In this document: positions 3,993 to 61,772 of the stretch, piece after piece
Layout of the letters: each line of letters starts with the position of its first letter
Position numbering within the stretch: the stretch's first letter is position 1
Source of the DNA: Ostreococcus lucimarinus
Taxonomy: Eukaryota
Assembly (NCBI GenBank): GCA_000092065.1
Contig: CP000592.1
Length of the DNA: 64,000 bases
Direction: 5' to 3' (one strand)
The notes under the pieces: model-generated
Told to the model about the DNA's origin: nothing
Databases searched by the model: none
What the model saw: the letters and a program-made list of their open reading frames with translations, nothing else
Translations under genes and position numbers: made by a program

Positions 3993-4024
3993 ACATTAGA
4001 GCTGTTGTATGCTATAGTAGTGGA

Positions 4025-42605: not shown

Positions 42606-45245
42606 CTAGGTCAACACGTCTATGGATGCTCGACACGTCGGGCATCGTAATGCATTTCGAAGAGAACAGAGTAAGCACGAGGCGTGGAATATGTGCGAGC
42701 AGTCTGTGCGAATCAATTTTTCATTCGTTCGACATTCGTTCAAGCAAATGGCGCACGTAGTACATTCCACGTCTTTGTCAGCGACGTACGCGCGCTTTGC
42801 GATCTCTCGTAACGTCGTGTCTCTGCGATCACGCTCGACGTCTTCAGCAGTAGTGTACAAAAGTCGGTCGCTCTCCCAAAGATTCGCTCCGAATTGTCGC
42901 GCGTCAGCGGCAAATAGATTCGAATCCGTCGCGGTCAAGTCGGCGCCAAAACGTGGTGTTCCGTCGCGAAAAAGCGCCGAATCGCTCGCATAGAGATGTG
43001 CATCGGGATAGAGATTCGAACGATGAGACACTCCGGCGATAATTCCCAATCTACTCGCAATATCTAGCAGAACTTCCGCATCGAGCGCAGCGTAAGTGAT
43101 CTGGGCTTGCGCGAGTGGTCTGGCATCCCAGTTGCTTCGCTGACAGCGCTTATCGAGCGCGTATCCGAGCGTTTCGGAAACGATGGAAGCCAACGAGTTC
43201 ATGACATCGCCTTGCAAGTCGATGACGTTGGCGTCCTGAAAACAGCCGGGTAGAGGGCTCGAGGACGACGACGGATATGACTTGCTCGCGACACGAAGTC
43301 GTTTCCAGTCTTGCTCTGGGGCAAACGCAATCTTTTTCATACCCGATTCACCGAACACGTCTGCGATGAATGTAGACATCCGCGTCCGTTCGATTCGTAA
43401 ACAATCGATGACGAATGTTTCGCAATTGTGCACTGGAGAAATTTGGAGCGTTGAAATCGGTCGCGGATCACGCCATTCGCAATCAAATGCGAAGGCGTCA
43501 CAATGTGGCGACGCAAGAACTTCTTTGATTCGCTCTAATCCGCACTCGTCTTCCACGACGATGATTCTCTTCTTCGGCACCAGGAGGGGAAGTTCAGAAG
43601 AAATTGTCATACTTTGAAGGTTTGCGTCGACGTCGAGAAACTCGTCCGGCGCGCGAAGATCAAATGTTTCGCGCAACGTTTCGCGCGTCAAAGCGTACGC
43701 CTTTGCCTCCAACCAGTCGCCTCGATCCATTAGATCGTCCAAAACTGATATTTCCATGCACTCCACGATCGCATTGCTGGCAATCGTCGTGATGTCGTTT
43801 TCCCACGTGTCCACCAAACGTCGCGCCACTTTTGACACGGTCTTTGAATCCAATGTGGCAATGGCTTCGTCCAATCCCGCGAAAATTGGTTGCCTCCACG
43901 ACTCGACGCGTCCTCCAAGATCAGCTAAACTTACCGCTGTATGTGCGACTGAGGTGGGATCGCTCGCATCGATGGCGCTGCACATGCGTTGCGCAAAATC
44001 CGTGACGCTCTCAAGCGCTCGAGACGTTGTCGTCATCGTCTTGGCGTCTGTTATTTCGAGAAGCGCCGCGATATCATTCAACTCACGGCAGTTGGTCTCT
44101 TCGCACGCACGCACGATGGCAGATACAATTTGATCTTCCGTAAACATCATCTCGCGATCCTTCATCGTCGTGACGAATGTTGAAACCGATCCGCAAATGT
44201 CAAACATTTGTCGCGACGTCACTGAACTCCACGCGCCGTTGTCCATCGCGCTCGCGACGGCGGAGGCTAAAATCCTACACGCAGTTCTACGCGCCTTCTC
44301 TTCGCGAACGCGCACACGATCGGATATTCCACAGTCACGGAGTCGCACACCCACCAAAGCTCGCAATATCGATAAATTGCCATCGTCGTCGGCGACGCCC
44401 GCGAGTGTCTCCGCGGCGCGCGAAGAAACATCCGGCTTCTCCCCGCTCACCGCAATGGCTGTCTCAGCACGCAATATCTTCGCCACTAACTCAACCATGG
44501 CGTCACTTTCGACGTCTTTCGACAATCTTTGGTCCCGCAACAACGTCCCAAACTCCTCCCACGCCGTCTCCGCGTCTTTTTCTCGCTTCTGCTTCGCCGC
44601 CGCTTTTCGCTCCAGCGAACGATCAATACCGTCGGGATTATCCCACGACACTCCTTTATTCAATCGACTAAAATTGCCTCGACGAGATTCCCTCGTCGAC
44701 ACCCCCCGAGCCGGTTCGTTCGCCACCTCATCCGGAAAAAATCGCTCATCCAGGTCGCCGTACTTTAAGCCGTCCGAGTGCGACGCTCGAAAATTCCACC
44801 ACGTCGTCTCTCGCCGCTCGGCTTCCTCGATCGCCTCGATCGTCGCCCTTTCGCAGTGCGACAGCGCTAACGATCGCACGCTTTGTCCCTTATTATTCAC
44901 TATTTTCACCTTTGCCCCGCGCTGCAGCAGGTACAGCACGACGTCGTCGCGACATCGCGTCGTCGCGTAAAACACCGCCGTCTTTCCGTAGTTGTGTCGC
45001 CCCGTGCTGATCTGATCGATCGCCCCTCCCCTCTCCAGCACGCACTTCACCACGTCGAGCGACCCTCGCCACGCCGCGAGGTGCAGCGGCGCCTTCCCGG
45101 ACCTCGCCGCGCGTCGCGCGAGCAATTCGTCGTCGCCCTCGGGTCGCGCGTCGAGCCACTCGCGCAGACCGTCGACGTCGTCGGCCACGAGCAGGCGCTG
45201 CGGCACGCACGCCTCGGCGCGTCGCGCGCGGGCGACGATGGGCAT
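42606..45245 (-). CDS. Ankyrin-repeat, DEDDy 3'-5' exonuclease (WRN-exo/Mut-7-like) and RING-H2 fusion protein
   Basis: The ankyrin region reads GKAPLHLAAWRGSLDVVKCVLERGG...TAVFYATTRCRDDVVLYLLQRGA. Exonuclease motifs are AFAFDCEW, KIAFAPEQDWKRL and YAALDAEVLL. The RING-H2 is CAICLNEC....CSHIFHASCL...CPTC. ATG 45245 (MPIVARARR) is used. The track ORF to 45851 runs antisense through the BolA gene. Confidence 0.8.
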   Translation of the reverse strand: MPIVARARRAEACVPQRLLVADDVDGLREWLDARPEGDDELLARRAARSGKAPLHLAAWRGSLDVVKCVLERGGAIDQISTGRHNYGKTAVFYATTRCRDDVVLYLLQRGAKVKIVNNKGQSVRSLALSHCERATIEAIEEAERRETTWWNFRASHSDGLKYGDLDERFFPDEVANEPARGVSTRESRRGNFSRLNKGVSWDNPDGIDRSLERKAAAKQKREKDAETAWEEFGTLLRDQRLSKDVESDAMVELVAKILRAETAIAVSGEKPDVSSRAAETLAGVADDDGNLSILRALVGVRLRDCGISDRVRVREEKARRTACRILASAVASAMDNGAWSSVTSRQMFDICGSVSTFVTTMKDREMMFTEDQIVSAIVRACEETNCRELNDIAALLEITDAKTMTTTSRALESVTDFAQRMCSAIDASDPTSVAHTAVSLADLGGRVESWRQPIFAGLDEAIATLDSKTVSKVARRLVDTWENDITTIASNAIVECMEISVLDDLMDRGDWLEAKAYALTRETLRETFDLRAPDEFLDVDANLQSMTISSELPLLVPKKRIIVVEDECGLERIKEVLASPHCDAFAFDCEWRDPRPISTLQISPVHNCETFVIDCLRIERTRMSTFIADVFGESGMKKIAFAPEQDWKRLRVASKSYPSSSSSPLPGCFQDANVIDLQGDVMNSLASIVSETLGYALDKRCQRSNWDARPLAQAQITYAALDAEVLLDIASRLGIIAGVSHRSNLYPDAHLYASDSALFRDGTPRFGADLTATDSNLFAADARQFGANLWESDRLLYTTAEDVERDRRDTTLREIAKRAYVADKDVECTTCAICLNECRTNEKLIRTDCSHIFHASCLLCSLRNALRCPTCRASIDVLT

Positions 45246-45370
45246 GCGCGCGCGCGCGGTCGCGAGGCGCGACGACGACGGCGCGCGCGCGCGCATGCGT
45301 GTGACGACGTCGCGAGCACAGACGGCGAAACAATTGGATTCGCCGAGGACGCACACGTCGTCGCGCGCGC

Positions 45371-45604
45371 ATGAGCTCGACGCGCGAGGTGCGCGAGCTG
45401 CTCGAGCGCGCGTTCGCGCCGTGCGCGGAGCTGGACGTCGTGGACGTGAGCGGGGAGTGCGGGAGCGCGTTCGAAGTGCGCGTGGTGAGCGAATCGTTTC
45501 GAGACAAGAGTCGGATTGAGAGTCATCGCGCGATTCACGACGCGCTGGGGAGCGTGATGGGAAAGATACACGCGCTGAGCGTGAAAGTGGCCAAGGCGCC
45601 GTGA
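45371..45604 (+). CDS. BolA-like protein (77 aa)
   Basis: The sequence VDVSGECGSAFEVRVVSESFRDKSRIESHRAIHDALGSVMGKIHALSVKVAKAP matches the BolA signature (..F.G.....H R.....L....IHAL.). Confidence 0.8.
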   Translation: MSSTREVRELLERAFAPCAELDVVDVSGECGSAFEVRVVSESFRDKSRIESHRAIHDALGSVMGKIHALSVKVAKAP

Positions 45605-45673
45605 ACGAGGCGCGACGTAGGGGCGCAGAGGATCGTGATGGACCGTTGTTATGGAATGAATGTTGGCTACGAA

Positions 45674-46675
45674 TCAACGCACGGCGAGAAATTTCTCGAG
45701 TTTGGCCACCATCACGGGAGGCCAACGACGTATGCGCGTGACGTAATCGATATCGCGATATTTGGCGCAACCACTCTCGCGCGAACACGCTCGTTCCCAC
45801 GCATCTTCGGCGTCTTCGAAGCGGGCCGCTGAATAATATAAAGCGGCGCACGCCGCGCGCACGTCGGCGCTGTTCGGCGCGCGGCGGACGAGAGATTCGA
45901 GCTGTTTCAGCGCTTTATCTTCGTTTCCAAGCTGAGCTTCGGCGAGGGCAAGGTTGGAGAAGGCGTAAATAGCGCCGTCCAGGCGTTGCGTCGTCGAGGC
46001 GCCGACTTTGAAGCCGCGCGCGCCTTGGAAAAGATTCGCCGCGCTTTCGTAGTCATCCTTTGCCTTGTCCCAATTTCCGAGCGAGCCGTGGACGTTACCT
46101 CTAGAGTTCAAAACGTACGGATCCGGCGCGAATCCCGAGACTTCACACAACCGCAACACCTCGTCATAGTCGCGCAGGGCGTCCCGGAAGCGGTACACTC
46201 CCTCCAGAGCTAACGCCCTTCCCGCGAGAACGCGCGCCGAAGCGCTCGCATCGCCTTCGCACATCGCCACGGCCTCATCGTACGCTTTCAACGCATCGTC
46301 AAACTGTTTCGCGTCCACGCTCACCGTGGCCTTGGCCTCGATCCACCGCAGCTCGTTCGGCTCGGCTCGGCGCAGGGCGTCCAGCGCGTCGAGAGCGCGG
46401 CTAAAGTCTTGCACGTCGTACGCCTCTACCAACGCGCGCTGTAATTCGTCGATGCTCTCAGATGCAAACGCGCGGGAGTTTGCGCGCAACGAGCAACAGA
46501 ACGCGCCGATGACGGCGCTTCGGCGCGTCGTCGTCGTCCCGGAAGTGCTCGGGACGTCATCGGTCGGTGCTTTGAACCGTCGCGTTTGGTTTTGTCCACG
46601 TTCGGGGCGCGCGTCGGCGCGAACGCAGCGCGAAGACGACGCGATGATCGGTGTCGCGCTATACGAAGCGCGCAT
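45674..46675 (-). CDS. TPR-repeat protein with presequence
   Basis: Several 34-aa TPR-like units are present (ALKAYDEAV, ALRDYDEVL, AKDDYESAANL, ALKQLESLV). A conserved C-terminal YRDIDYVTRIRRWPP motif follows. Confidence 0.68.
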   Translation of the reverse strand: MRASYSATPIIASSSRCVRADARPERGQNQTRRFKAPTDDVPSTSGTTTTRRSAVIGAFCCSLRANSRAFASESIDELQRALVEAYDVQDFSRALDALDALRRAEPNELRWIEAKATVSVDAKQFDDALKAYDEAVAMCEGDASASARVLAGRALALEGVYRFRDALRDYDEVLRLCEVSGFAPDPYVLNSRGNVHGSLGNWDKAKDDYESAANLFQGARGFKVGASTTQRLDGAIYAFSNLALAEAQLGNEDKALKQLESLVRRAPNSADVRAACAALYYSAARFEDAEDAWERACSRESGCAKYRDIDYVTRIRRWPPVMVAKLEKFLAVR

Positions 46676-46762: not shown

Positions 46763-48259
46763 CTACAAGCGCATCTCGTGAATCTCGCAATTCTTCATGC
46801 TTCGCTCTGACTTGGAAAACTCCTTGAAGAATGTGGAGTGTCCGAAGACCACAAACGTTTCCTCCGGTCGCTTGAGGAGCCAGTCGCGGAAACGCGCGAC
46901 GCGGCGCTTGAAGTTCGTCTGCGGCTCGAGAGACTTGAACTGTTCTGACTGTGCGTCGTTGGGCCTATGTTCGCAACCCTCCCACCACCAGCGATCTTCA
47001 GGGATTCTAGATAGTGCTAATTCTAATTCCGGAAATTCCGCCTCAAGGCAGCGTCTGGGACGACCGACGTCTCCCGAGCAGCTGAGTTTCTCAGTCAATT
47101 CTTCGCGAATCATGAGTCGGCTTGTCCACTCTTCAAATTCCCGCTCGGGGTTGAAAGCCTTCTTTGACGAAGTACTCAACGGTGTATTTAAGTCGTCGAC
47201 ATTCTCGTCCGGTGAGGCATCGTCCGCGACGTTCGCTCCGCCGCGCTGAGCCTTGTTCAGTTCCGCCGCTTTCGCCTCGAGCGCCGCCTTGCGTCCGATG
47301 ATGCACGTCTCTATCGCCCTCGTCAAAGGTGACGTGATCCAAAGCGCATTTTTCGGCATCTTCGAAAGAGCCATGCCTAAAGCCTTCGCTTGCTTCCTTC
47401 CCAGCTCGGTCAGCGCGGCGTCGAACATCTTTGGCTCGTCCCAGGACCCCGGGCCCGAATTCGCGGCGTTCCACGTACTCTGGCCGTGACGAACCAAGTG
47501 CACCTTCTTCTGACCCGTGCGAAAGATTGGATATAACTTGAGCTGCCGATCCTTTTCCGCCTGAACGCGTGCTGCTGCAGCATCCCTCTTACACTCATCA
47601 TCGCGAATCTTCTCCGCCCTCGCTCTCGCCGTCCGATCTTCGTCGCTATCGCACTGCGAAAATTCGCGCGCCGGCGATATGACGTACTGCGACCCTCCGT
47701 ACTCTCCCGGCGACATCCCTCCCCACTCACTCCTCGGCGTGTCTTCCTCGAACCCCGGCGTTTCATTCCCGTCGCCATCGTCATCATCCACAGTCCCTCG
47801 CTTCCCTCCTGACGCGCGCGCCGAACTCGAATCCCGCCGCGTCCGCCGCCGGCGTTCCCTCCCAATCGACCCCCCCGCGCTCCCACCCGCGACGTCCACG
47901 CTCTTACACGCGCTCATAGACCGACGTTTCGCGATGTTGAACCCTCCCAGCCCGACATCGTCGCTCTCTACTCTCGGCGTTTGCATCGGCGTCGTCTTCA
48001 GGTCTCCCATCGTCCCCAACGGCCCGAGTTCGCTCCGTCGTCGTTTCCGTCCCGTCGTCCACGTTCTTCCGTTCGCGCTCGCCGTGCGCAGCGCACGACC
48101 GTGATGCGCCGCGCGCGCCTGCGTCACCGCGGGCGTCACGGCGTCGTCACGGAACCCATCGTCGTCGTCATCCGTTCGCACGACAGCCGAGACGTGCGCA
48201 TCATCTTTCGACGTTTCCACGCCCGCGCGAGCGTCAACGGGCGCGCGCGCGGACGACAT
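46763..48259 (-). CDS. Histidine phosphatase (phosphoglycerate mutase family) protein with a long low-complexity N-terminal region
   Basis: The RHG catalytic motif is VHLVRHGQSTWNAA. A later VVFGHSTFF motif supplies the second His. ATG 48259 is used (ORF open to 48388). Confidence 0.72.
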   Translation of the reverse strand: MSSARAPVDARAGVETSKDDAHVSAVVRTDDDDDGFRDDAVTPAVTQARAAHHGRALRTASANGRTWTTGRKRRRSELGPLGTMGDLKTTPMQTPRVESDDVGLGGFNIAKRRSMSACKSVDVAGGSAGGSIGRERRRRTRRDSSSARASGGKRGTVDDDDGDGNETPGFEEDTPRSEWGGMSPGEYGGSQYVISPAREFSQCDSDEDRTARARAEKIRDDECKRDAAAARVQAEKDRQLKLYPIFRTGQKKVHLVRHGQSTWNAANSGPGSWDEPKMFDAALTELGRKQAKALGMALSKMPKNALWITSPLTRAIETCIIGRKAALEAKAAELNKAQRGGANVADDASPDENVDDLNTPLSTSSKKAFNPEREFEEWTSRLMIREELTEKLSCSGDVGRPRRCLEAEFPELELALSRIPEDRWWWEGCEHRPNDAQSEQFKSLEPQTNFKRRVARFRDWLLKRPEETFVVFGHSTFFKEFSKSERSMKNCEIHEMRL

Positions 48260-48432
48260 CGACGCGAGCGATCCCCACGCGCGCGGCGACTGCGCCCGCG
48301 CGCGTTCACGCGCTCGATGCGCGCGCGCGCGAGCTCCCGAACGTCTCGTTTTGACGTGTTTGAAATTCAAATCGCGTCGACGCGTCAATACGCGACGTCG
48401 CGATCGCGATCGCGGCGCTCTTCGCGCGCGCG

Positions 48433-49781: not shown

Positions 49782-51038
49782 ATGCAGACGACCGCGATCC
49801 CGTCGCGAACCGCGGCGCGCGCGCGCGGGTGGACGAGAGCGCGAGAGGGCGCGCGCAACGCGACCATCGTGCGCGCTAACCCACCCGGAAGTGCGCGACG
49901 CGAAGGCGTCGCGCGACGCGGCGACGACGCGGCGACGACGCGCGCGATCGCGGTGGATGAAAGAAAGTCATCATCATCGACGGACGCCGTTCGCGAGTGC
50001 GCCGTGGGGGACGCGCTGCGGGTGCGATTGCCCGGGGAGACTCGAGCGAGTTATCTAGAGGTGGAGGCGACGAGCGCGAACCGCGCGCGCGGAGCGTTTC
50101 GAGGCGTCGATGCGGTGCTCGAGGTGTGCGAAGAGACGAATAGAGTGTTGTTGAGTGAAATTGTCGATGGGAACTTTGGAAAGGATGGGAAGAGGAAGTC
50201 AACGCGATTGTTGCGGGAAAGGTTTACGCGCTCGTACGACGGTTTGACGACGACGCTGGAGACGCTGCGAAGGTCGGGAGAATATCCGGCGCCTGGGTTT
50301 TCGGGCGCGATCGAGTGCGAAGAGGTGTCGAGACTTTGTAGTTTGGAAGAGTTACGCGCGCGAGTTTCGGAAGATGCGAGCTTTTGGGCCGACGGAAGTC
50401 CGAAAGATTTCCAAGGCTTGTCCGCGGACGAGCACGCAACGCTCAACGCCGGGGAGATTTTGGCGTTTCAGTGTGGATGCAGACCGATGTGCATGGTGCA
50501 GCTGTGGACTGGTTGGGAAGACGATTTGGGTCGACGACAAAGCATTGACATGCCTTTTGTCGCCCGATTGCTGAAGGAAATCACCGAAGACGATGAAATT
50601 GGTGTCATCACCGTCGCGCCTCCAGGGGCATCAGAAAAGCTCGGAATCACCGCGCTGTTGTATCCTCGAAAGTCGCCGTATAAAGAGCGCGCGAAGCTGC
50701 TCGCCTCTTTCGGCGCCCAAGCAGCCATCGTGGCGGGTTCAGCGTACTATCAAACGCTGATAGGACGGTGCCTCGGGTACAAGGAGGAGAACATCAATGC
50801 GCACGTGCAGCAATACAACAAGGGCGTCGGCGTCTCGAAGCAAATCAGCGACTTGGTCGAAGAAGAATTGGCCGGGCTTAGCGCAGTTCCCGCGTCAAAA
50901 CGGTGGAGAGATGGGTTCGCGGTCGCTACGGTGTCGAACGACAAGTCGCGAAGTCGAAGGAAAAAGAAGTCCAATCGAGCGTCCTCAAACTTGGAGGACG
51001 TGGAAATGATGTTTGGCCGACGCGGGCGCGCAAAGTAG
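49782..51038 (+). CDS. Hypothetical protein with presequence (418 aa)
   Basis: The C-terminal 300 aa are non-repetitive (QCGCRPMCMVQLWTGWEDD, GRCLGYKEENINAH). No family was recognised. Confidence 0.5.
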   Translation: MQTTAIPSRTAARARGWTRAREGARNATIVRANPPGSARREGVARRGDDAATTRAIAVDERKSSSSTDAVRECAVGDALRVRLPGETRASYLEVEATSANRARGAFRGVDAVLEVCEETNRVLLSEIVDGNFGKDGKRKSTRLLRERFTRSYDGLTTTLETLRRSGEYPAPGFSGAIECEEVSRLCSLEELRARVSEDASFWADGSPKDFQGLSADEHATLNAGEILAFQCGCRPMCMVQLWTGWEDDLGRRQSIDMPFVARLLKEITEDDEIGVITVAPPGASEKLGITALLYPRKSPYKERAKLLASFGAQAAIVAGSAYYQTLIGRCLGYKEENINAHVQQYNKGVGVSKQISDLVEEELAGLSAVPASKRWRDGFAVATVSNDKSRSRRKKKSNRASSNLEDVEMMFGRRGRAK

Positions 51039-51077: not shown

Positions 51078-54000
51078 CTATGAGAGCGTGCCTATTGCTT
51101 CGAAGTCATTCAGCATGTTACGCGAATGCACGGCTTCGAAGATTTTCGTACCGTCGCCTCCGCCGTATCGCAAAATTGCGTCGGCGCCGGCGGGATGGTC
51201 ATCCAAGAAATCGGTAAAGTCGTAAACACGGCCGTACAAAGCCACCCAGCAGTCATCCGCGGAGGCGTGTTTAGCGAGTTCCTCATGCGTGATAATGCGA
51301 TCTCGTTTCGGTATCTTCAGTTTCGGTACCTCCGTCGCGGCAGATGGCGCATCCGTGTTTGAGACAATGTTCACGTTCGTGCCGACGAGCCGCCCGAACA
51401 CCGCGCACTCAGTGAGCGCATTTCCACCTAGACGATTCTTGCCGTGCACACCACCGATGATTTCCCCAGCGGCAAATAATCCAGCGACGGGCGTTCCATC
51501 AGCTCGCACGACTCGTCCATAGCTATCAACCTTGACACCACCCATGGTGTAATGTACCACTGGCGTGACTCGCCCGGCGTAAAACGGCCCAGAAACTTTG
51601 AAAGGCGCGTTAGCAAAGTATGTCTTGTTGAATTCATCGAGACCCGCATTGGCTTGGTCGTTGTACTGCTCCAACGTCGCACGAAGCTGAGACTCCGTCG
51701 TGTTTCCACGGACGGACATCCACTTCGTCAAATCCGCGAGTGTGTCGAACTTGGTCATCAGGTTCTTCTTCACGTAAAGCGGCACATGCTTGTTCGCTTC
51801 GCTCGCGCCTTTTTCATCAAGCAGTAACACGAAGTCGAGCTTTTCTGCGTCTTCTTCTTGCATGCGAGCGCTGACGTAATCACGCGTGCCAAGCTCGTTG
51901 GCAAATCGTTTACCCGAACGATTCAATAGAATACCACCCGCACCTCGGAGTAATTCTGCGGCAAGCGTTTTCGTGTCGGCGCCCTCGTCTTCAGGATTGA
52001 TGAAGCCCGTGGGATGTACTTGAACGCGTTGCATGTCAACAGCACCAGCGCCTAATCCAAAAGCGAGCTTGTGTCCATCACCGGTCGTGCCTTTCGTGTT
52101 TGTCGTGGCGAACTTTGTGAGCTGAGGCGCGTACTTGCTCAGTAATGCGTCTTCTCCTTGCTTGTCATTCGAGTATCCCCCGGTGGCGAGCAGCACGTGG
52201 CGTGCTCTGACTTCGCCGCCTACATTACTACCATTCGAACCATCGGATGGCGTCCAACGCACGGCATTGATCGCGCCATCTTCAGCAGTGATTATTTCAC
52301 TCACCCTAGCCTTTTTCACCACTTTAAATCGCCCAGATTGAATGTAGTCTTCGCATTTCCCTTTGAGTGCGAAAACGAGAGACGATCCCGCCATACCTTC
52401 GTTCGGTCTGTACGTACGAGCGTAGCTGTGCCCTCCAAGCCTCGAAAGTAGGCTTAAATCGGCGCCAACGCGTCGACGAAGCCATTCAATCGTGGCACCA
52501 GCCTGGCTAGTGAGCGTCGGGATATGTTCGACGGTTTCGGGATCGAGATTTTCGCGACCGTTGCCGTTTCCGTAGGAGGATTTTTCGCAGTCGTCTGAAT
52601 ACGCTTCGACGCTGTCGGGATTATCTTCAAACGAAGTCTTGATCACTCCGTTGATCCCCGAAGACGCCCACTGAGAATTACCACCAACATATGCCTCTTT
52701 CTCTACCAACGTCACCCTACCGCCACGATCGAGCACGGTGAGTGAAGCCGTCAAGCCCGCTAAACCGCCGCCGACGACGACCAAGTCAACCGGGGGGTCA
52801 TCTTCAATGCCGCCTTTGGGTAGGGGTACGCCGAGTGCGCGAAGCGCGTGTTCGATGAATCTCCACGGCATGCTCTCAGCGTAGTACTTTGCTAAGACGA
52901 CAACTTTTGGATTATCCTCGAGCATTGCGCTCACGATGGCTGCCTCTGATTCTGGCGTCAACGCGCCAGATTTCACGTACGTCGCGGTAGCTGCAATCGC
53001 CGCCTCCAGTGGGCTCTGCTCCACCTTTTGACCGCCTTCAGTTTCGCGCAGATGTAAACCAACGCTTTCCAAATCTACTGAGCTCTTCAACGCGTCCTGC
53101 CTCGCCGCATTCATGAGTTCGGGCACTTTGCGAATGGCGTGACTAAACTTTGCAATGGTGTTCACAAGAGCCACCACCTCTTGCTTGTTCAAAGAAGACT
53201 CCAAGAGATCTTCGGGCAAGAGCAAGACTTTCAACGCCGAACCAAGACCCAAGAGTTGAAGTTTACCGTGAAGCTTGCACTTTTGACACGAAATGCAGTC
53301 CATGACTTCGCTAATGTTCAAGAAGATGTCTTTGAACTGGCTCTTCAGCGACACCGGCGCGAGAAGCTCTTCTCCCACTCCGCTGATCATTCCCGAGTTC
53401 GCACTCAACGTCGACTGCACATCGCGAAAAAGAGACTTTTCATCGAAAGCACCGAAGACATCGCGACAAGACGACAAAATGTGGCTTTCCAGCAAGCGAC
53501 TCATCAAAGCGTGCGTTCGCTCGTCCTCTTCGGCGTCTTGACCGATGCGAACGTCCATCTTCGACAGCGCCGGGGCCGCCTTACGAAGCGCTCTCAAGAG
53601 GACGACGAAAGAAAAGTGCAAGTTTTTCAGACGTTCTGGGTGCTTGGCGAATATTTCCACGAACTTTTTGGGATCGCTTCCCCACTCCGTTTCCCCGAGC
53701 GCGCGTTTCGGAGGCTTGGAGTGAAGCGCGATGTGGATGTTGATGCTCGAATGCATGCCGGACAAAAGGCGATACAGCACCCGCTCTTCGTAGCACATTT
53801 CATCCACGCTCGACGCCGACTTTAAGCAATTCTCTTCGTAAATGGCCCGCCAAACGTGCGATCCGTTGTATCCAGTCCATCGCTCTGGATTCAGCTGCAA
53901 GTTTACGTACTCTGTTTGCTCCTCGGGCGCAAACTTGTGGCACATGTCCGTCCAAAACGTCGGCAAATCCTCATCCGAGCATTCCGTTTCCGGGACGTCG

Positions 54001-54593
54001 ATGGACGTCAACGCCTCCGCCTCGGGCGTACTGATGGTTCGATCAACGCTATCCGTCACCGGGCTCCGCAGCGTCGGTTCCGAGCCATCCTTATGTTCCA
54101 AATCTAGCGAGCACATCGTCTTCGGCGGCGACGCCGACGACGACGACGCGAACGGGGCGGAAGAAAAACCACCACCGCCGTGACCACCGTCACCGAACGC
54201 CGCGGTCGCACCGGACGGCGCCTCGCACGACGGCTCCGTCTCCGTCTTCGTCTCCGCGCCTTCCGTCGCCTTCCAAAACTTACACGTCCGTTTCAAATCC
54301 ACTTGAAACAACCTAAAATACGTCGTATTCGTCAACTCACTGAGAATAGAGTGTAACTGCGCCTCGTTCGCGCCCTCGACGTCCTCCACGTCGCACGACG
54401 CGTCCCCGACCGCGCCTCGCACCGCGTCGCGCGAGCGCGTCTCGCCTTCGCCTTCCCCTTCGCCCGTCGCCACCCCCGCGCCCCGCGCGCCGACGCTCGA
54501 CGCCACCGCGACGACCGCGATCGCGCCCACGAGCACCATCCACCATCGTCCGCGTCGTTCGCGTCCGCGTCCGCGCGTCCGCGTCGTCGCCAT
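51078..54593 (-). CDS. Tri-domain fusion of ERO1 (ER oxidoreductin), a soluble FAD-dependent fumarate reductase (OSM1/FRD-type) and cytochrome b5
   Basis: One uninterrupted 1171-codon frame starts at ATG 54593. The signal-anchor is [23 protein letters not shown]1 motifs are [16 protein letters not shown] and [12 protein letters not shown] (~54395-53124). FRD motifs are [40 protein letters not shown] and NRLGGNAL (~52790-51369). The b5 domain reads [22 protein letters not shown] (~51299-51081). Confidence 0.85.
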
Positions 54594-54627
54594 CGTCGCG
54601 AACCAATCAATCAATCCGTCGCGCGGT

Positions 54628-54710
54628 CGAACCGAACCGCGCCGAACCGCGCCGAACCGCGCCGAACCGCGCCGAACCGCGCCGAACCGCGCCGAACCGA
54701 ACCGATCCGC
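54628..54710. repeat. Tandem decamer array (GCCGAACCGC), 5 exact plus 2 near copies
   Basis: Exact copies of gccgaaccgc start at 54641, 54651, 54661, 54671 and 54681. They are flanked by accgaaccgc and gccgaaccga. The array lies 35-117 nt upstream of ATG 54593 of the ERO1-fusion gene (minus strand). Confidence 0.95.
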
Positions 54711-55294
54711 GACGCCCGCCCGCCCCCTCGCCCGCGCCCCCCCGCGCGCGCGTCGCTCGCGTCGCGCGATGCCGCCGCGATCGGTCGCCCGCGCCGTCTC
54801 CATCGCACATTCGTCGATCGCTCGTTCGCGTCGATCGACGATCGACCGATCGCCCGTTCGACGCGCGATCGGTCGAACGGCCCTCGGGGGCGAAACACAC
54901 CACCGCGGGCGGACCCGAAACACCGCGACAGCGGACCAAACGATGTTACGTATTTAACATTCACTTTACACTAGATGGTATTTTCCGCGACTCGCCGATC
55001 TCGACACGCGCCCGACGTCTTTCGGTCGCCGTTTCGCGCCGCGCGACGACGGCGGCGACGACGCCGCGCGACGGCGACGACGCCGCGCGACGCGACGCGA
55101 CGCGAAGAGTCGACGCTCGACGCTCGACGCTCGACGCGCGCGCGTCGCGACGCGTCGACGCGTTCGGCGCGCGTCGAGCGGCTCGGATCGGAGTTCGTTG
55201 GGCGCCGCCGCCGATCGACGATCGCGCGGGCGCGACGCGGATTCGAGGGCGCGCGCGACGCGCGGCGACGAGCGATCGACGACGATCGTCGACG

Positions 55295-56224
55295 ATGGGG
55301 AGGGGGACGGGGAGCGACGCGACGGCGCGGGCGGCGGAGGCGAGGACGAGGGCGCGGGACGACGACGCGAGGGCGGACGCGCGGGGCGACGCGAACGCGA
55401 ACGCGAACGCGAACGCGAACGCGAACGCGAACGCGGCGAGACCGCCGTATGCGGCGATGACGGTGTATCCGGCGGTGTACGGGGCGTACGATGCGATGCG
55501 AGCGATGTCGCCGATGACGTACGACGCGTACGCGGGCGCGGCGCGCGCGGTGGCGGTGCCGGGGGATTCGTTTTCGAGACAGATTCAGGAGCGGGCGTAC
55601 GCGAGCGCGTTTACGTTTACGCGGCAGTGGAATTATTTGCAACACGCGGCGGCGGCGCAGCACGCGGCGTTCGCGTCGGGGAGTCGTGGGGGTGGAACGA
55701 TGATGGATCTTCTCGCCGCCACCGGTTCGGCGGCGGCTGAGCGCGATATCGGCGTCGAGCGCGAGGTGGAGCTGAGCAAGCGACAGCGGTTGGTGTGGAC
55801 GCCGCAACTGCACGCGCAATTCATCGCGGCGGTGCAAAAGCTCGGGGTTAAGACGGCGGTGCCGAAGGCGATTATGAAAATAATGAATGTCAAAGGGTTG
55901 ACGCGTGAAAACGTCGCTTCGCATTTGCAGAAGTATCGTCTGACGCTCAAACGAGCGCAGGATAGCTCTGAATCGACCCGGGCGTCGGGAGACGCGACAG
56001 ACGCGAAGAGAAGCGACGTCCGCGCGGGACGTAAGAGGAAAGATCGCGAAGAAAAAGGTAAAACCAACAGTGGAAGCGGCCAGGGAAGCGGCCAGGGAAG
56101 TGACGGTGGAAGTGCCGAGCATAGCGCGAGTGAAAACCTCGAGAATCGCGCCAAGCGAATTTCTTCCAGCGAAGAAGAAGAGACGCGACAAATTACGCTC
56201 GCCGTCGACCACAACGACGAATAA
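55295..56224 (+). CDS. GARP (G2-like) Myb-related transcription factor
   Basis: The GARP domain is [55 protein letters not shown], containing the SHLQKYR signature. The start is uncertain between ATG 55295 and ATG 55457, the latter just after the (GCGAAC)7 array. Confidence 0.8.
55391..55435. repeat. Hexanucleotide array (GCGAAC)7
   Basis: The sequence gcgaac repeats 7 times. It encodes (AN)7 if ATG 55295 is used, or lies 22-66 nt upstream of ATG 55457. Confidence 0.95.
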
Positions 56225-56410: not shown

Positions 56411-57670
56411 TCACACTTTGTTTTGCTCCTCCTCGAGAAAGTAAATCACGGGTTTGAGCTCGAACGGAAGGGGAGAAGTATTGTCGTACGCGGGCAGATC
56501 AACTGGACGTTGCGACGGCGGTAGCGACGCGTACGCCGACGCCTTGGTTCGCTTCGTGTACTCGTCTCGCAACTCCTTGACGGTTTTCAGCGCGTAAAGC
56601 AGCATCGCGTACGCTCGAGGCGGCGACTCGGGCGAGCGAGATGAACGCTTGAGCTTGGACAAAATCACTCGAAAGCAAGCCTCCATGCGATCCCACGCCT
56701 CGGTGAGCTCGGCGATTTTTCTCGTCCAATACGTATCGTGCCACGCCGCGTGTGCTTCGCCTTGCAGGTGAAACATTCTAATCCATTGAAATTCAACCTC
56801 GCGATGGACGTCGGCTAAGAACTGTATCTGTTTCGCATCCAAAGGTTTATTCTCGCGCTCTAAGTCTGGTACAATTGCGAGCGCATCGATACACCGCCTT
56901 TTGATGTACTGGAACGTATCCTTGGCCACCACGGCGACTCGATGTGTCGAAGAATATCTCGCACTCGAGCCGGTGAGCACGGCGTGATGGTGAGTGGCGT
57001 TGAACTCACCACACATGTAATACGTCGCTTTATCCTCCAAAGGCACGCAAAGCACCTCGCACTCCGCGTTCAACGCCCTCAGCGCCACTCGCCAGTCTTT
57101 TCTCTCTGGCGCCTCGTATGTGTGATACACCGCCACGGTGGAGTTTTCTCGCAACGACGAATCGCTGTGCCAACTCACCGACGTCGTCCCGAGATCGAAC
57201 TTCTCCTCATTCCGTAGCTCTATTTCGCTCTCACCCTCTGTTTCCATGTAATTAATCAGCGTCACGTTGTATTCGCACTCACTCTCCGCGAACGCTCCGC
57301 CGAGCTTTTCGCATCGCTCTCGCGCGCTCCTCGTCAGCGTCTCGTTCAACCGTCTCACCACTTCGTACGCCTCCCGTCCGCGCCACGGTTGCGCAAACAG
57401 GCGTAACTTCTGATAATGATACGTCATTCCGTCCTCACCGAGCAGGCAGCGCCGCACGTACGTCGTGGACACTTTATTTCCGGCGGAAACGACGTCGTGC
57501 GTGAATTCGCCTCGGCTGCGCATGTCGTCGAACGCGCGTTCGACGTCGTCGTGAAGCGACGCGGGAAGCACCGAGGGCGCGTCCACGACGAAACCGCGGT
57601 AGTGCGCTCGATGGACGCGCGCGAACGGTTCGCCGTCCTCGGGTTCGAGCACGGAGGATGACGGCGACAT
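56411..57670 (-). CDS. FTO: FTO-like 2-oxoglutarate/Fe(II) dioxygenase (AlkB-related nucleic-acid demethylase homologue)
   Basis: The product is collinear with human FTO. Matches include YNVTLINYM, VSWHSDSSLRENSTVAVYHTY (HxD), NATHHHAVLTGSSARYSSTHRVA (His plus 2OG-binding Arg), HREVEFQWIRMFHLQG and the C-terminal SPLPFELKPV. Confidence 0.9.
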   Translation of the reverse strand: MSPSSSVLEPEDGEPFARVHRAHYRGFVVDAPSVLPASLHDDVERAFDDMRSRGEFTHDVVSAGNKVSTTYVRRCLLGEDGMTYHYQKLRLFAQPWRGREAYEVVRRLNETLTRSARERCEKLGGAFAESECEYNVTLINYMETEGESEIELRNEEKFDLGTTSVSWHSDSSLRENSTVAVYHTYEAPERKDWRVALRALNAECEVLCVPLEDKATYYMCGEFNATHHHAVLTGSSARYSSTHRVAVVAKDTFQYIKRRCIDALAIVPDLERENKPLDAKQIQFLADVHREVEFQWIRMFHLQGEAHAAWHDTYWTRKIAELTEAWDRMEACFRVILSKLKRSSRSPESPPRAYAMLLYALKTVKELRDEYTKRTKASAYASLPPSQRPVDLPAYDNTSPLPFELKPVIYFLEEEQNKV

Positions 57671-59024: not shown

Positions 59025-60293
59025 TTACTCGATGGCGCAACCGTCGGCGTCTTTCCCGTCGATAACGTTGCGCCACCGGCGATAATGTAAACCGAGCTTA
59101 TCATAAGCTACGGGATGGGCCCAAACTCGGGCACCACGCTGCATGCGGTCTTGTTGACCCGTGACTAGACGTAAATCCTCGCCGAGAACTTGGTTCGCCA
59201 TCTCGGTCCAGATGTATTCGATGCCCGGGACGTATTGGGCCCACGAGGCAAAATCGAGGGACATACGGTAGAGCAAACGCGTGTGACCTGGAGTGCTAGG
59301 CAAGCACACGTGGAGCTGATGCAAGTGCTTCTCGCACTCCAACGCGCTGACACCTTCCTTAAACTGCGCACCCTTACCCACTGCGCCCGCTTGCGCCAAG
59401 CCAATGTGGCTGTCAACCATGCACGGCGCCAAAAACTTCATGTCGATGGGGTACGGTTTCCAGCTCCCTTCGCTGCGACCGTTGGCGAGAAAGTTACCCA
59501 TATCGTGCCACCCGTCGCCGTCTTTTCTTAATTTGCGAGACGCAAACTTGACCATGTTTGGCACGCCCCAACCCTTGGCAAAGGTGCCGGTGTGCGTAAA
59601 CGGCGCGTGCGCCAAATCGAGCAAGTTCTCCATCAACAACCCGTGTTCGACGGGAACGTCCTCGATGATGAGTTCTGCGTGAATGGTGTACCCTTCTGGC
59701 GCCGCAAAGTGCGACGGAAGCTCCTCCGTGGGTCCACAATTCATCGAAGGCCACACCATGACGAGCCCGTCCCTCGTCCCCGTCGCCAGCATCGTACGCG
59801 GACTCTTCTTACTCTCGCATTCGTACTGCCCTTCCGCAACCTTGCGCACCACCCACGTCTCATCTAGCAAAACAACCTCGACTTCTTCGTCGATTTCCTT
59901 AAACTTGCTCTCAAACATCACCGGATACCAAAACTCCCGAATCTTACTCTCCTCCCGCGGCGTCTCCAACGAGCTCTCGTCGCAAAACACCCGACGCATC
60001 CCCGGTCGCACCTTTCGACTCACCGCCGCCGCGCTCGTCGCGACGCTCTCCACTTCCGTCTTCACCACGAATCTCTCATCCGCGACGACGCGCGTATCGT
60101 TCGAATCCGTCACCGCTCGCGTCCGCGTCGTCCTCGCCGTCGATCGCGTCCGTACCTTCCCGTCGTCTCTCCCTCGCCCGACCCTCTCTCTTCGCGCCCT
60201 TTCTCCCGCGCGCGCGCCCGTCGACGTCGGCGCTCGCATCGCGCGCATCTTCACCGTCCCTCGTCCCCGTTCGCTCGTCCGCGCGCGTCGCAC
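59025..60293 (-). CDS. CAO: Chlorophyllide a oxygenase-like protein retaining the mononuclear-iron domain but lacking Rieske [2Fe-2S] ligands
   Basis: There is a strong collinear match to plant CAO. Matching segments are EFWYPV, VEHGLLMENLLDLAHAPFTHTGTFAKGW, PYPIDMKF, HLHQLHVCLPS..TRLLYRMSLDFA, QVLGEDLRLV.GQQ.RM and PVAYDKLG..YR.WRN. The CxH...CxxH Rieske segment is replaced by ECESKKSPRTMLATG. The start is ATG 60293, 60248 or 60239. Confidence 0.88.
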   Translation of the reverse strand: MRRARTSERGRGTVKMRAMRAPTSTGARAGERARRERVGRGRDDGKVRTRSTARTTRTRAVTDSNDTRVVADERFVVKTEVESVATSAAAVSRKVRPGMRRVFCDESSLETPREESKIREFWYPVMFESKFKEIDEEVEVVLLDETWVVRKVAEGQYECESKKSPRTMLATGTRDGLVMVWPSMNCGPTEELPSHFAAPEGYTIHAELIIEDVPVEHGLLMENLLDLAHAPFTHTGTFAKGWGVPNMVKFASRKLRKDGDGWHDMGNFLANGRSEGSWKPYPIDMKFLAPCMVDSHIGLAQAGAVGKGAQFKEGVSALECEKHLHQLHVCLPSTPGHTRLLYRMSLDFASWAQYVPGIEYIWTEMANQVLGEDLRLVTGQQDRMQRGARVWAHPVAYDKLGLHYRRWRNVIDGKDADGCAIE

Positions 60294-60586: not shown

Positions 60587-61591
60587 CTACGCCGCGGTCG
60601 ACGACGAGGAATAATTAATCGCGCTGTCGCCGACGGCGTAATCGCCGCGAAGATCAGTCGGGGCGATCGAACCGTCGCGAGGGGGCACGGTCAGGTCGAC
60701 GCATCGAACCTGCCCGAGCTCGAACGGGTAGTCGAGGTGGTGGCGGGAGAGGTCGGTGCCGTTCAACGCGGCGGCGAAGACGCTGAGGGTGTCCTGATGG
60801 GAGACGATGATGATGTCTTCGCCGTAATACGTGGCTTCGAGACGCGTGAACGCCTCGAGGGCGCGTCGATAAATGTCTAAGCACGACTCCACGCTCGCCG
60901 ACGGTTGCAACGAACTCGGCACCGGAGGCGGCGTCGAGGAGGGGTCGTCGAAATCGTTCTTCCAAACGTCAACCCACGCCTCTTGCGAGCCGAAATCCAA
61001 CGCACCCATCTTTCTCGGATCTAATAACCCGCTAAACTCGGTGCGCATCTGCGAAAACAACAGCCCGATCTCTTCCCTGAGCACCAACGCGCTTTGAAAC
61101 GACCGCTGAAAATTCGACGTGTACAACCACGCCGGCGCGCCGTCGAAATCCCTTAAAATAGTCTTCGCCGCCTCTTGCATCTGCGCTCGGCCTCTCGCCG
61201 TCAGCCCGAACGTGGTGTCGTACTTGAAGCTCGGGTTACTCAAAATCATCCCCCCGTTCCGCACGTCCAGCACCGATTCTCCGTGCCTCACGAAGAAGTA
61301 TCTGTTGTGGAGCCGACTCGGTAAATCTATGAACGCCCGCGCCGGCGCCGCGCCGATCTCGCCCGCCCCGACCGCGCCCACGAGCGCGATCCCTCTCCCC
61401 AGCGCTCCTCGCCTGCTCACGCCGTCCTCGCGCGTCGTCGCGCCGCTTCGCGCCCCCTCGCCGTCTCGCGATGTCCCGCGCGCGCGCGCGCGTCGACGTC
61501 CATCCGCGCGTCCTCGCGACGTCTTTCGCGCGCGTCGCGGCGTCGACGGACGCGCGATCGTCGGAGACGAGTTCGCACGCGCGCACGGCAT
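60587..61591 (-). CDS. Histidine phosphatase (phosphoglycerate mutase family) with presequence and a twin-arginine-like signal
   Basis: The RHG motif is YFFVRHGESVLD and a later IIVSHQDTL supplies the second His. The N-terminus reads ...VSRRGALGRGIALVGAVGAGEIGAAPARAF. ATG 61591 is used (ORF open to 61765). Confidence 0.72.
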   Translation of the reverse strand: MPCARANSSPTIARPSTPRRARKTSRGRADGRRRARARGTSRDGEGARSGATTREDGVSRRGALGRGIALVGAVGAGEIGAAPARAFIDLPSRLHNRYFFVRHGESVLDVRNGGMILSNPSFKYDTTFGLTARGRAQMQEAAKTILRDFDGAPAWLYTSNFQRSFQSALVLREEIGLLFSQMRTEFSGLLDPRKMGALDFGSQEAWVDVWKNDFDDPSSTPPPVPSSLQPSASVESCLDIYRRALEAFTRLEATYYGEDIIIVSHQDTLSVFAAALNGTDLSRHHLDYPFELGQVRCVDLTVPPRDGSIAPTDLRGDYAVGDSAINYSSSSTAA

Positions 61592-61772
61592 CGCGCGCGT
61601 CGACGCGTGACGCCCGTCGTCGCCGTTCGCGCGCGCATCGTGCGCCGACACGCGCCAGCCATCGCAACCGTCACGAGGTCCGAGTTTAGCGCTACATGCC
61701 GAGTCTCGCACCGTCGTATGGGTAAACAGTCGGAACCGTCGGACGGCGGCGCGTCGACGGCACACGGCGACG

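Follow-up and report, generated by a model that had tools for sequence, protein, structure and literature searches.

What accepts the electrons released by disulfide formation in the endoplasmic reticulum (ER) in place of O2 has long been a question, and a single gene of the alga Ostreococcus lucimarinus bears directly on it. To our knowledge, the only answer proposed for eukaryotes is electron transfer from Ero1 to the soluble fumarate reductase Osm1 in yeast, which rests on a very weak interaction and on in-vitro reconstitution. We analysed a stretch of 64,000 nucleotides from O. lucimarinus (contig CP000592.1 of assembly GCA_000092065.1; hereafter the window), in which one coding sequence at 51078..54593 on the minus strand joins an ERO1 domain, a soluble FAD-dependent fumarate reductase (FRD) domain and a cytochrome b5 domain in a single polypeptide. 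The fusion is genuine and widespread among eukaryotes, and we lean towards reading its product, from sequence, as a single-polypeptide ER-luminal protein-dithiol:fumarate oxidoreductase.

A first-pass annotation of the window had reported a single uninterrupted frame of 1171 codons at 51078-54593, which the listing of open reading frames (ORFs) and the translation bear out: from the ATG at 54593, 1171 codons run without an internal stop to the stop codon at 51078-51080. The minus-strand frame is listed as open over 51078..54923 and contains an earlier in-frame ATG upstream of 54593. The upstream stretch holds a 10-bp tandem repeat, CCGAACCGCG x8, at 54632..54711 (strand unassigned; 92% matches), which within the open frame would be translated into 10-residue protein repeats. 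Given that a repeat period of 10 bp is not a multiple of 3, the stretch upstream of 54593 is most likely a 5′ leader, and the start is therefore ATG 54593 or the alternative ATG 54539, the latter being used in the metagenomic gene model P0001, and not the upstream ATG. The gene is comparatively GC-poor (0.54-0.55) and flanked by GC-rich DNA, within a window whose GC content in 2-kb windows is strongly uneven, ranging from 0.475 (4001-6000) to 0.68 (54001-56000).

The fusion is not visible in the O. lucimarinus reference annotation, because the RefSeq model XP_001420806.1 / ABO99099.1 ('predicted protein, partial', O. lucimarinus CCE9901) is a 561-aa partial model (window 51081-52784) that matches residues 604-1164 with 100% identity and covers only FRD and b5, omitting the ERO1 half, the helical module described below and the last 7 residues of the fusion protein. 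The reference annotation thus needs correcting, as its partial model hides the ERO1 half.

Searches with Pfam profiles recovered the ERO1, FAD_binding_2 and Cyt-b5 domains, all named in the first-pass annotation, as three non-overlapping and essentially full-length matches. The ERO1 domain spans residues 79-489 (53127..54359, minus strand; PF04137, 3.9e-87), the FRD domain, of the Osm1/flavocytochrome-c3 type, residues 603-1073 (51375..52787, minus strand; TIGR01813) and the cytochrome b5 haem-binding domain residues 1102-1169 (51087..51290, minus strand; PF00173, 9.7e-20), and the motifs pointed out in the first-pass annotation at residues 92-104, 433-439 (CISCQKC) and 1133-1136 (HPAG) are all present. 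The protein begins with a hydrophobic signal peptide or anchor at residues 17-36 (54486..54545, minus strand), which follows an Arg-rich n-region and peaks at 2.16 on the Kyte-Doolittle scale (19-residue windows). Strong hydrophobicity in windows of this size is confined to residues 16-42 and the Rossmann GxGxxG strand at 602-622. Most full-length homologues carry an equivalent N-terminal hydrophobic segment, and by hydropathy none has a later membrane span; a KDEL-type tail is absent from the fusion protein. With one N-terminal signal and no later membrane span, all redox domains are expected to share one compartment, and this hydropathy heuristic would place the three of them on the luminal side of the ER.

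The domains are joined by two segments of different character. The first-pass annotation had described a linker of ~100 aa between ERO1 and FRD; the segment is there, but it is no plain linker, since residues 526-590 (52824..53018, minus strand) form a conserved and confidently modelled four-helix module. Its helices, at residues 528-541, 547-558, 562-572 and 576-586, reach 10-residue block-mean pLDDT values of ~78-94 in the AlphaFold model, its gap fraction is 0.03-0.04 among 121 aligned sequences (a MAFFT alignment of the query and 120 homologues, on which all conservation counts below are based), and it belongs to no known family, with no Pfam match even at E<=10. By contrast, the ~25-residue segment between FRD and b5 (residues 1076-1100; 51294..51368, minus strand) is a flexible tether of low conservation (14% identity to the query, 34% gaps) and low model confidence (pLDDT 48-63), as is the case for mobile haem domains. 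The AlphaFold model of the whole protein has a pTM of 0.57.

Is the fusion real, and how far does it extend? The full-length protein has 277 relatives at E<=1e-10, and PF04137, PF00890 and PF00173 occur together in all 120 listed (best 120 of 277), in proteins of ~1000-1430 aa. In other Ostreococcus-like clades identity is 74-80% over 87-98% of the query, coverage being at least 95% in all of these clades except for one prediction with a missing N-terminus. In O. mediterraneus the 1135-aa product of a complete transcript, UniRef100_A0A7S0PSI9, aligns with 74% identity over residues 58-1170, inter-domain region included. Two or three adjacent genes merged by a lost stop or a frameshift, or transcribed separately, could in principle mimic such a protein, and the partial RefSeq model XP_001420806.1, limited to residues 604-1164, might seem to favour this. 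However, the same three-domain ORF recurs in more than 120 clusters of independent assemblies, near-identical full-length ORFs from O. lucimarinus stand on many independent contigs (one of them, P0133, on 13), many family members are complete Trinity/MMETSP transcripts from many species, O. mediterraneus among them, and the inter-domain segment is itself conserved and predicted to be folded. The ERO1-FRD-b5 fusion is thus genuine and an assembly or gene-merging artefact is excluded; we assign the latter next to no probability.

The survey of orthologues proposed in the first-pass annotation found the three-domain architecture in 120/120 listed homologues and in nearly every eukaryotic supergroup, the matches listed including Archaeplastida, Cryptista, Stramenopiles, Rhizaria, Discoba, Amoebozoa and a choanoflagellate. 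Among green and streptophyte algae the fusion occurs in Ostreococcus, Prasinococcus and Mesostigma, and among cryptophytes in Guillardia theta. Stramenopile carriers are the diatoms Thalassiosira, Skeletonema, Stephanodiscus, Mediolabrus, Mayamaea, 'Detonul...' and 'Step...' and the labyrinthulomycetes Hondaea, Mucochytrium and 'Aplan...'; the others are the diplonemids Diplonema papillatum, D. ambulator, Rhynchopus and Namystynia, the rhizarians Paulinella micropora and 'Norri...', the amoebozoans Copromyxa protea and Pyxidicula operculata and the choanoflagellate Savillea parva. Transcriptome records of single species may include contaminants, but the overall taxonomic breadth is robust to this. 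The fusion is therefore no algal speciality, as first supposed, but a pan-eukaryotic protein that extends to protists including Amoebozoa, Discoba and a choanoflagellate. At the same time, the Rosetta-stone argument for a functional link between the two enzymes gains strength from the recurrence of one architecture in more than 120 proteins, many of them complete transcripts.

Whether this architecture was already annotated elsewhere, which the first-pass annotation had left open, receives a divided answer: the proteins do stand in public databases, with names that are generic and automatic ('flavocytochrome c', 'fumarate reductase (NADH)', 'Cytochrome b5 heme-binding domain-containing protein'), but they are described in no publication that we found. 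The UniRef name 'fumarate reductase (NADH)' is carried despite the lack of an NADH-binding domain. In the full-text literature searched, where absence is not proof, no description of a natural ERO1-FRD fusion was found, and PMC6242907, PMC5638582 and PMC9516139 make no mention of one. The architecture has apparently gone unremarked, while the chemistry itself is not new. Two records of apparently prokaryotic origin are members of the eukaryotic family: MDA9097914.1, 'FAD-dependent oxidoreductase [bacterium]' of 1431 aa (P0225, in the cluster of P0014), and MGB1606666.1, a 92-aa fragment from 'Promethearchaeia archaeon' (P0393, in the cluster of P0247). Both are probably eukaryotic contigs mis-binned into metagenome-assembled genomes.

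The ERO1 domain matches PF04137 with 293.1 bits against a cut-off of 27, over profile positions 1-353 of 354, and can be aligned to human Ero1-alpha and yeast Ero1p (3ahr, 3m31). In this alignment the inner active site CISCQKC (residues 433-439; 53277..53297, minus strand) places Cys433 at human C391 and yeast C349, and the FAD-proximal CxxC pair Cys436/Cys439 at human C394/C397 and yeast C352/C355. C433, C436 and C439 are invariant in 121/121 sequences. The flavin-contacting core motifs NPERxTGY, W248 and H281 (SGxHxSI) are present and align with the yeast and human enzymes, and T240, W248, H281 and N324 are invariant across the alignment. The FAD-binding residues and the inner CxxC of the ERO1 domain are thus canonical, and FAD binding is predicted.

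The outer part of the active site is different. The outer shuttle cysteines of canonical ERO1 (human C94/C99, yeast C100/C105) are spaced as C-x4-C and carried by a flexible loop. A C-x4-C after the structural cysteine occurs in 0/92 fused proteins, as against 36/40 canonical ERO1 representatives, and is replaced by two conserved loop cysteines, spaced as C-x37-C here (C123/C161) and by ~10-40 residues elsewhere, the second usually in a P-x-C-S-L context. The remodelled region (residues 104-218; 53940..54284, minus strand) comprises the structural Cys104, the candidate shuttle cysteines Cys123/Cys161 and Cys205/Cys218, and conservation of its cysteines among the 121 sequences ranges from 82% for Cys123 (99/121, with gaps in 18 of the rest) to 100% for Cys218. 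Residues 111-179 have pLDDT <50 and are predicted to be disordered, suggesting that the shuttle loop is flexible. In diatom-type members (P0045, P0051, P0057, P0063, P0069 and others) an acidic C-x(13-16)-C loop cassette is tandemly duplicated, as in EGCAGDLPDLDPDAEPAC ... FECDGGKDELDDDAEPLC, giving four loop cysteines. The assignment to ERO1 therefore stands as far as profile and inner cysteines are concerned, but, lacking the canonical C-x4-C shuttle, the domain is classed as a member of a divergent ERO1 subfamily rather than as a canonical ERO1, and its hand-off with protein disulfide isomerase (PDI) may differ accordingly.

The same division appears in database searches and in phylogeny. 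With only the ERO1 domain as query, phmmer gave 2319 matches among 1.84 billion representatives, 440 of them at <=1e-30. Down to ~1e-60 all readable matches carry C..CQ.C[KR]LHGK or a close variant (C..C[QHSNE].C[KR]LHGK), about a quarter of the matches in this range being fragmentary or without a readable motif, whereas canonical stand-alone ERO1s (C..C[ED]KC[RK]LWGK, 420-600 aa) start at ~4e-59. Neighbour joining on the ERO1 core (107 sequences, 254 columns) splits fused-type from canonical ERO1s in 99/100 bootstraps, which strongly supports a separate subfamily of fused ERO1s. Short fused-type matches of 400-900 aa were considered as stand-alone members: by BLAST most run into the FRD domain and are incomplete predictions, and a few (P0243 and P0246-P0248) stop near the ERO1 boundary and could be of the stand-alone kind. 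His442 (CKLHGK; Trp in the yeast and human CRLWGK) was rejected as a unique family marker for a changed exit of electrons: no fused protein in the alignment lacks it, but His or Tyr also occupies this position in several stand-alone ERO1s.

The FRD domain is of the soluble type, as the first-pass annotation had proposed. Pfam FAD_binding_2 (PF00890) covers residues 603-1060 with 1.1e-76, and the NCBIfam flavocytochrome c model TIGR01813 is passed with 340.7 bits against a cut-off of 285.45, over profile positions 1-443 of 444. By contrast, the SdhA/FrdA models fall far below their cut-offs (TIGR01812, 138.9 against 567.3 bits; PRK09231, 86.2 against 854), as do the L-aspartate oxidase and TfrA models of NCBIfam, so that the database name of the Hondaea homologue, 'Succinate dehydrogenase ubiquinone flavoprotein subunit 1', is a misnomer. 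Among solved proteins yeast Osm1 (5glg) is the best relative by sequence (8.3e-80), followed by Shewanella Fcc3, and the fold of the AlphaFold model likewise resembles Osm1 most closely (5glg, TM-score 0.86, root-mean-square deviation 3.0 Å, E 2.4e-36; Fcc3 1qjd, TM-score 0.69). Alignment to 1ksu, 1d4c and 5glg equates Fcc3 H365/E378/R381/R402/H504/R545 with H860/E880/R883/R904/H1014/R1054, all six of which are invariant in 121/121 sequences, and the local motifs LAAE..RG, VHYTMGG and HGxNRLGGN match Osm1. Neither the inner ERO1 cysteines nor the catalytic Arg and His residues of FRD, on whose retention the first-pass proposal hinged, have been lost in any of the 121 sequences.

The FRD domain departs from Osm1 at the second, free-flavin pocket, which is a feature of Osm1 and not a trait of the wider soluble FRD family. 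We compared the pocket residues W295, F297, L298, N359, F362, Y363, K76, S78 and P162 of Osm1. The aromatic residues are replaced in the fused family, W295 by T/G/S/N and F297 by T/I/V, and N359 corresponds to the invariant His936; L298, Y363 and S78 are kept, and P162 falls in a gap. The pocket-neighbour positions H936, Y940, S644 and L877 are invariant or nearly so. Such an altered pocket is consistent with a built-in partner rather than a free flavin docking there.

The b5 domain scores 70.8 bits against a PF00173 cut-off of 23.7, and the haem domain of yeast flavocytochrome b2 is among its best solved matches. Its axial ligands H1133 (in HPAG) and H1156 are invariant in 121/121 sequences, and haem binding is predicted.

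To which known system does this protein come closest? Functionally it is the yeast pair of Ero1p and Osm1, which belong to the same enzyme families (Kim et al. 2018, PMC6242907; Neal et al. 2017, PMC5638582). Yeast Ero1p oxidises PDI and reduces its own FAD, whose reoxidation by O2 yields H2O2, Osm1 has an ER form, and ero1-1 and delta-osm1 are synthetically lethal (PMC5638582). Purified Ero1 and Osm1, which bind each other weakly (Kd 150-200 uM), with fumarate form disulfides without O2, and docking puts Ero1 at the site of the N-terminal haem domain of Fcc3 (PMC6242907). The chemistry proposed is the same, running from a protein dithiol through the Ero1 CxxC, the Ero1 FAD and the Osm1 FAD to fumarate. 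The yeast enzymes, however, are two separate ER proteins of a facultative anaerobe, whereas here aerobic protists and algae carry a covalent fusion with a conserved four-helix module and an obligatory b5. In addition, Osm1 has no haem, the ERO1 of the fusion belongs to a separate subfamily without C-x4-C, and the free-flavin aromatics of Osm1 are not kept.

Architecturally, Shewanella Fcc3 is closest, being a soluble single-chain FRD whose N-terminal electron-input domain feeds a non-covalent FAD from haem, with catalytic residues (H365, E378, R381, R402, H504, R545) identical to those of the fusion protein. Its input, however, is a periplasmic tetrahaem c-type cytochrome that receives electrons from the respiratory chain, in place of a thiol-oxidising flavoprotein and a single C-terminal b5 haem. 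The methanogen enzyme TfrAB converts two thiols into a disulfide while reducing fumarate to succinate, a net reaction of the type predicted for the fusion protein. Its thiol subunit is unrelated (Fe-S, HdrD-like), its substrates are CoM-SH and CoB-SH, it is cytoplasmic and archaeal, and with 128.7 bits against a cut-off of 718 in the NCBIfam TfrA model the fusion protein is not a member of that family. The E. coli chain DsbA-DsbB-menaquinone-FrdABCD also couples oxidative folding to fumarate when O2 is not used, but it is membrane-bound, quinone-mediated and made of separate proteins, with a DsbB unrelated to ERO1 and a covalent FAD in FrdA. Finally, flavocytochrome b2 and other b5-fusion flavoenzymes provide tethered b5 haems that exchange single electrons with a flavin domain of the same chain; the haem of flavocytochrome b2 passes its electrons out to cytochrome c, whereas here the partner flavins would be those of ERO1 and/or FRD.

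We infer the electron-transfer steps of the fusion protein, together with the role of b5, the fate of its reactivity with O2 and its supply of fumarate. The N-terminal signal would bring the entire protein into the ER, where reduced PDI-family proteins would be oxidised via the loop cysteines Cys123/Cys161 and then the inner pair Cys436-Cys439, which in turn would reduce the ERO1 FAD. The electrons of this FAD would not, or not only, pass to O2 and form H2O2; they would stay in the polypeptide and move to the FRD FAD, most likely one at a time via the mobile b5 haem, which would play the part of the haem domain in bacterial flavocytochrome c3. Direct flavin-to-flavin contact is an alternative to this haem relay. 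At the FRD site fumarate would be reduced to succinate, with R904 as proton donor and H860, H1014 and R1054 binding the substrate. The fusion would thereby turn the very weak yeast encounter of Ero1 with Osm1 (Kd 150-200 uM) into an intramolecular one, and O2 may be kept as an alternative acceptor. The position of ERO1 on the N-terminal side of FRD corresponds to that of Ero1 docked on Osm1, at the Fcc3 haem-domain site (PMC6242907).

What the sequences themselves attest is that the parts are present, intact and co-evolved, with one predicted compartment for all, and likeness to Osm1, invariant residues and a predicted shared luminal topology make a thiol-to-fumarate path through the protein moderately probable. 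Several considerations weigh on the other side. The C-x4-C shuttle is absent, so PDI oxidation is assumed; the route of fumarate into the ER lumen is unexplained even in yeast (PMC5638582); and the AlphaFold model has a pTM of 0.57. In addition, the b5 haem might, depending on its potential, relay electrons poorly to an FRD flavin of low potential, the benefit of an O2-independent route is not obvious given that the hosts are aerobic or oxygenic, and Ostreococcus may have a canonical ERO1 as well, none being named from it among the 120-150 mostly nameless matches listed.

The fusion may instead serve co-localisation only, an ordinary O2-dependent ERO1 being joined, merely for co-targeting and stoichiometric expression, to an FRD-b5 unit that works independently as a luminal redox valve on free flavins or other donors. 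We regard this as unlikely, if worth serious thought. The organisms come from oxic water, the FAD-binding residues and inner CxxC of ERO1 are canonical, Osm1 in solution oxidises the free flavins FADH2, FMN and riboflavin (PMC6242907), and the modest pTM of the AlphaFold model gives no sign of a fixed interdomain interface. However, co-targeting hardly explains why one three-domain order is kept in 120/120 listed homologues across supergroups; nor does it sit well with the conserved helical module between ERO1 and FRD, with a fused ERO1 that forms a distinct, co-evolved subfamily, or with the loss of the aromatics W295/F297 from the free-flavin pocket.

The constancy of b5, present in all 120 listed family members, and its flexible tether at the extreme C-terminus could also mark it as a gateway to or from an outside partner, through which flavin electrons leave via the haem to an acceptor or an external donor feeds FRD, fumarate reduction then not being primarily coupled to disulfide formation. 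The b5 fusions of flavocytochrome b2, sulfite oxidase and nitrate reductase are textbook cases of exchange with external partners. Against this, the invariance of the FRD catalytic machinery indicates selection for fumarate reduction, the ER lumen has no known candidate partner, and bacterial Fcc3 feeds its FRD flavin by fused haems, which together leave the gateway quite improbable. Still further down in probability, and in our view very improbable, is an FRD-like domain that reduces a substrate other than fumarate, for instance another alpha,beta-unsaturated acid. Urocanate reductase (6t85) is a significant relative (8.5e-45; TM-score 0.86), and the UniRef name 'fumarate reductase (NADH)' is automatic and given to a protein with no NADH-binding domain; but all fumarate-binding and protonating residues of Fcc3 are conserved and invariant in the family, the motifs LAAE..RG, VHYTMGG and HGxNRLGGN match Osm1, a proven fumarate reductase, and TIGR01813 is passed above its cut-off.

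That eukaryotes at large retain this covalent fusion so strictly provides independent evolutionary evidence for a real and old partnership of Ero1 with fumarate reductase, and the fusion offers a single recombinant protein for the whole thiol-to-fumarate path. The ever-present b5 and the altered shuttle loop are signs of a mechanism unlike the yeast model.

Is such an enzyme a back-up for anoxia or the principal ER oxidase of its hosts? Given that family members come from aerobic or oxygenic organisms in cultures that we assume to have been ordinary oxic ones, expression is probably not confined to anoxia. The distribution of canonical ERO1 points the same way. Lists of the top 120 matches to canonical-ERO1 queries name brown algae, oomycetes, raphidophytes, Cafeteria, land plants, bryophytes, Cymbomonas, Coccomyxa and Chlorokybus, and among the matches listed there no canonical ERO1 is named from a diatom, labyrinthulomycete, cryptophyte or member of the Mamiellophyceae. 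The phmmer search with ERO1 alone likewise names no canonical ERO1 from Mamiellophyceae, diatoms or labyrinthulomycetes among the 120-150 matches listed, which are mostly nameless. The fused list, by contrast, names exactly the groups missing from the canonical lists, among the matches listed. This complementary named distribution suggests that the fused form has replaced canonical ERO1, a pattern that is suggestive only, because the matches listed are the best 120-150 and mostly nameless. Together with the oxic hosts, it suggests that the fused protein is a constitutive and possibly the principal generator of ER disulfides, and not a mere anaerobic back-up.

A bolder version, which we hold only tentatively and think doubtful, is that the enzyme is ancient, possibly dating to the last eukaryotic common ancestor, and that many lineages of protists and algae (Mamiellophyceae, diatoms, labyrinthulomycetes, cryptophytes, diplonemids and others) depend on it as their main or sole source of ER disulfides, where it would have replaced the canonical O2-dependent ERO1. 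If true, ER folding in much of eukaryotic diversity would be wired to fumarate/succinate metabolism and would produce no H2O2. As the main ER oxidase of abundant marine phytoplankton (Ostreococcus, Micromonas-like algae, diatoms), the enzyme would couple folding to organic-acid metabolism and spare H2O2, which would matter to how these organisms cope with darkness, hypoxic microzones and oxidative stress.

The neighbourhood of the fusion gene is varied. A 418-aa ORF at 49782-51038 (plus strand), with no Pfam match, converges on it, leaving ~40 bp between the stop codons. On the other side, an ORF for a Myb/GARP-like DNA-binding protein (55295-56224, plus strand; PF00249, 1.5e-08) is divergent from it and contains at 55389-55435 a hexanucleotide, ACGCGA, repeated 7.8 times without mismatch and translated as an (Ala-Asn)n run. 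The ORF at 56414-57670 (minus strand), some 1.8 kb upstream of the fusion gene, encodes a 419-aa full-length homologue of FTO (FTO_NTD, 2.7e-86; FTO_CTD, 4.8e-66), a protein with earlier reports of homologues from marine algae. Farther away, and with no evident link to the fusion gene, lie two histidine-phosphatase (His_Phos_1) ORFs (46766-48388 and 60590-61765, both minus strand), the C-terminal region of a PaO/Rieske-type oxygenase (59028-60293, minus strand) and a 1081-aa protein that combines ankyrin repeats, a 3′-5′ exonuclease domain and a RING finger (42609-45851, minus strand).

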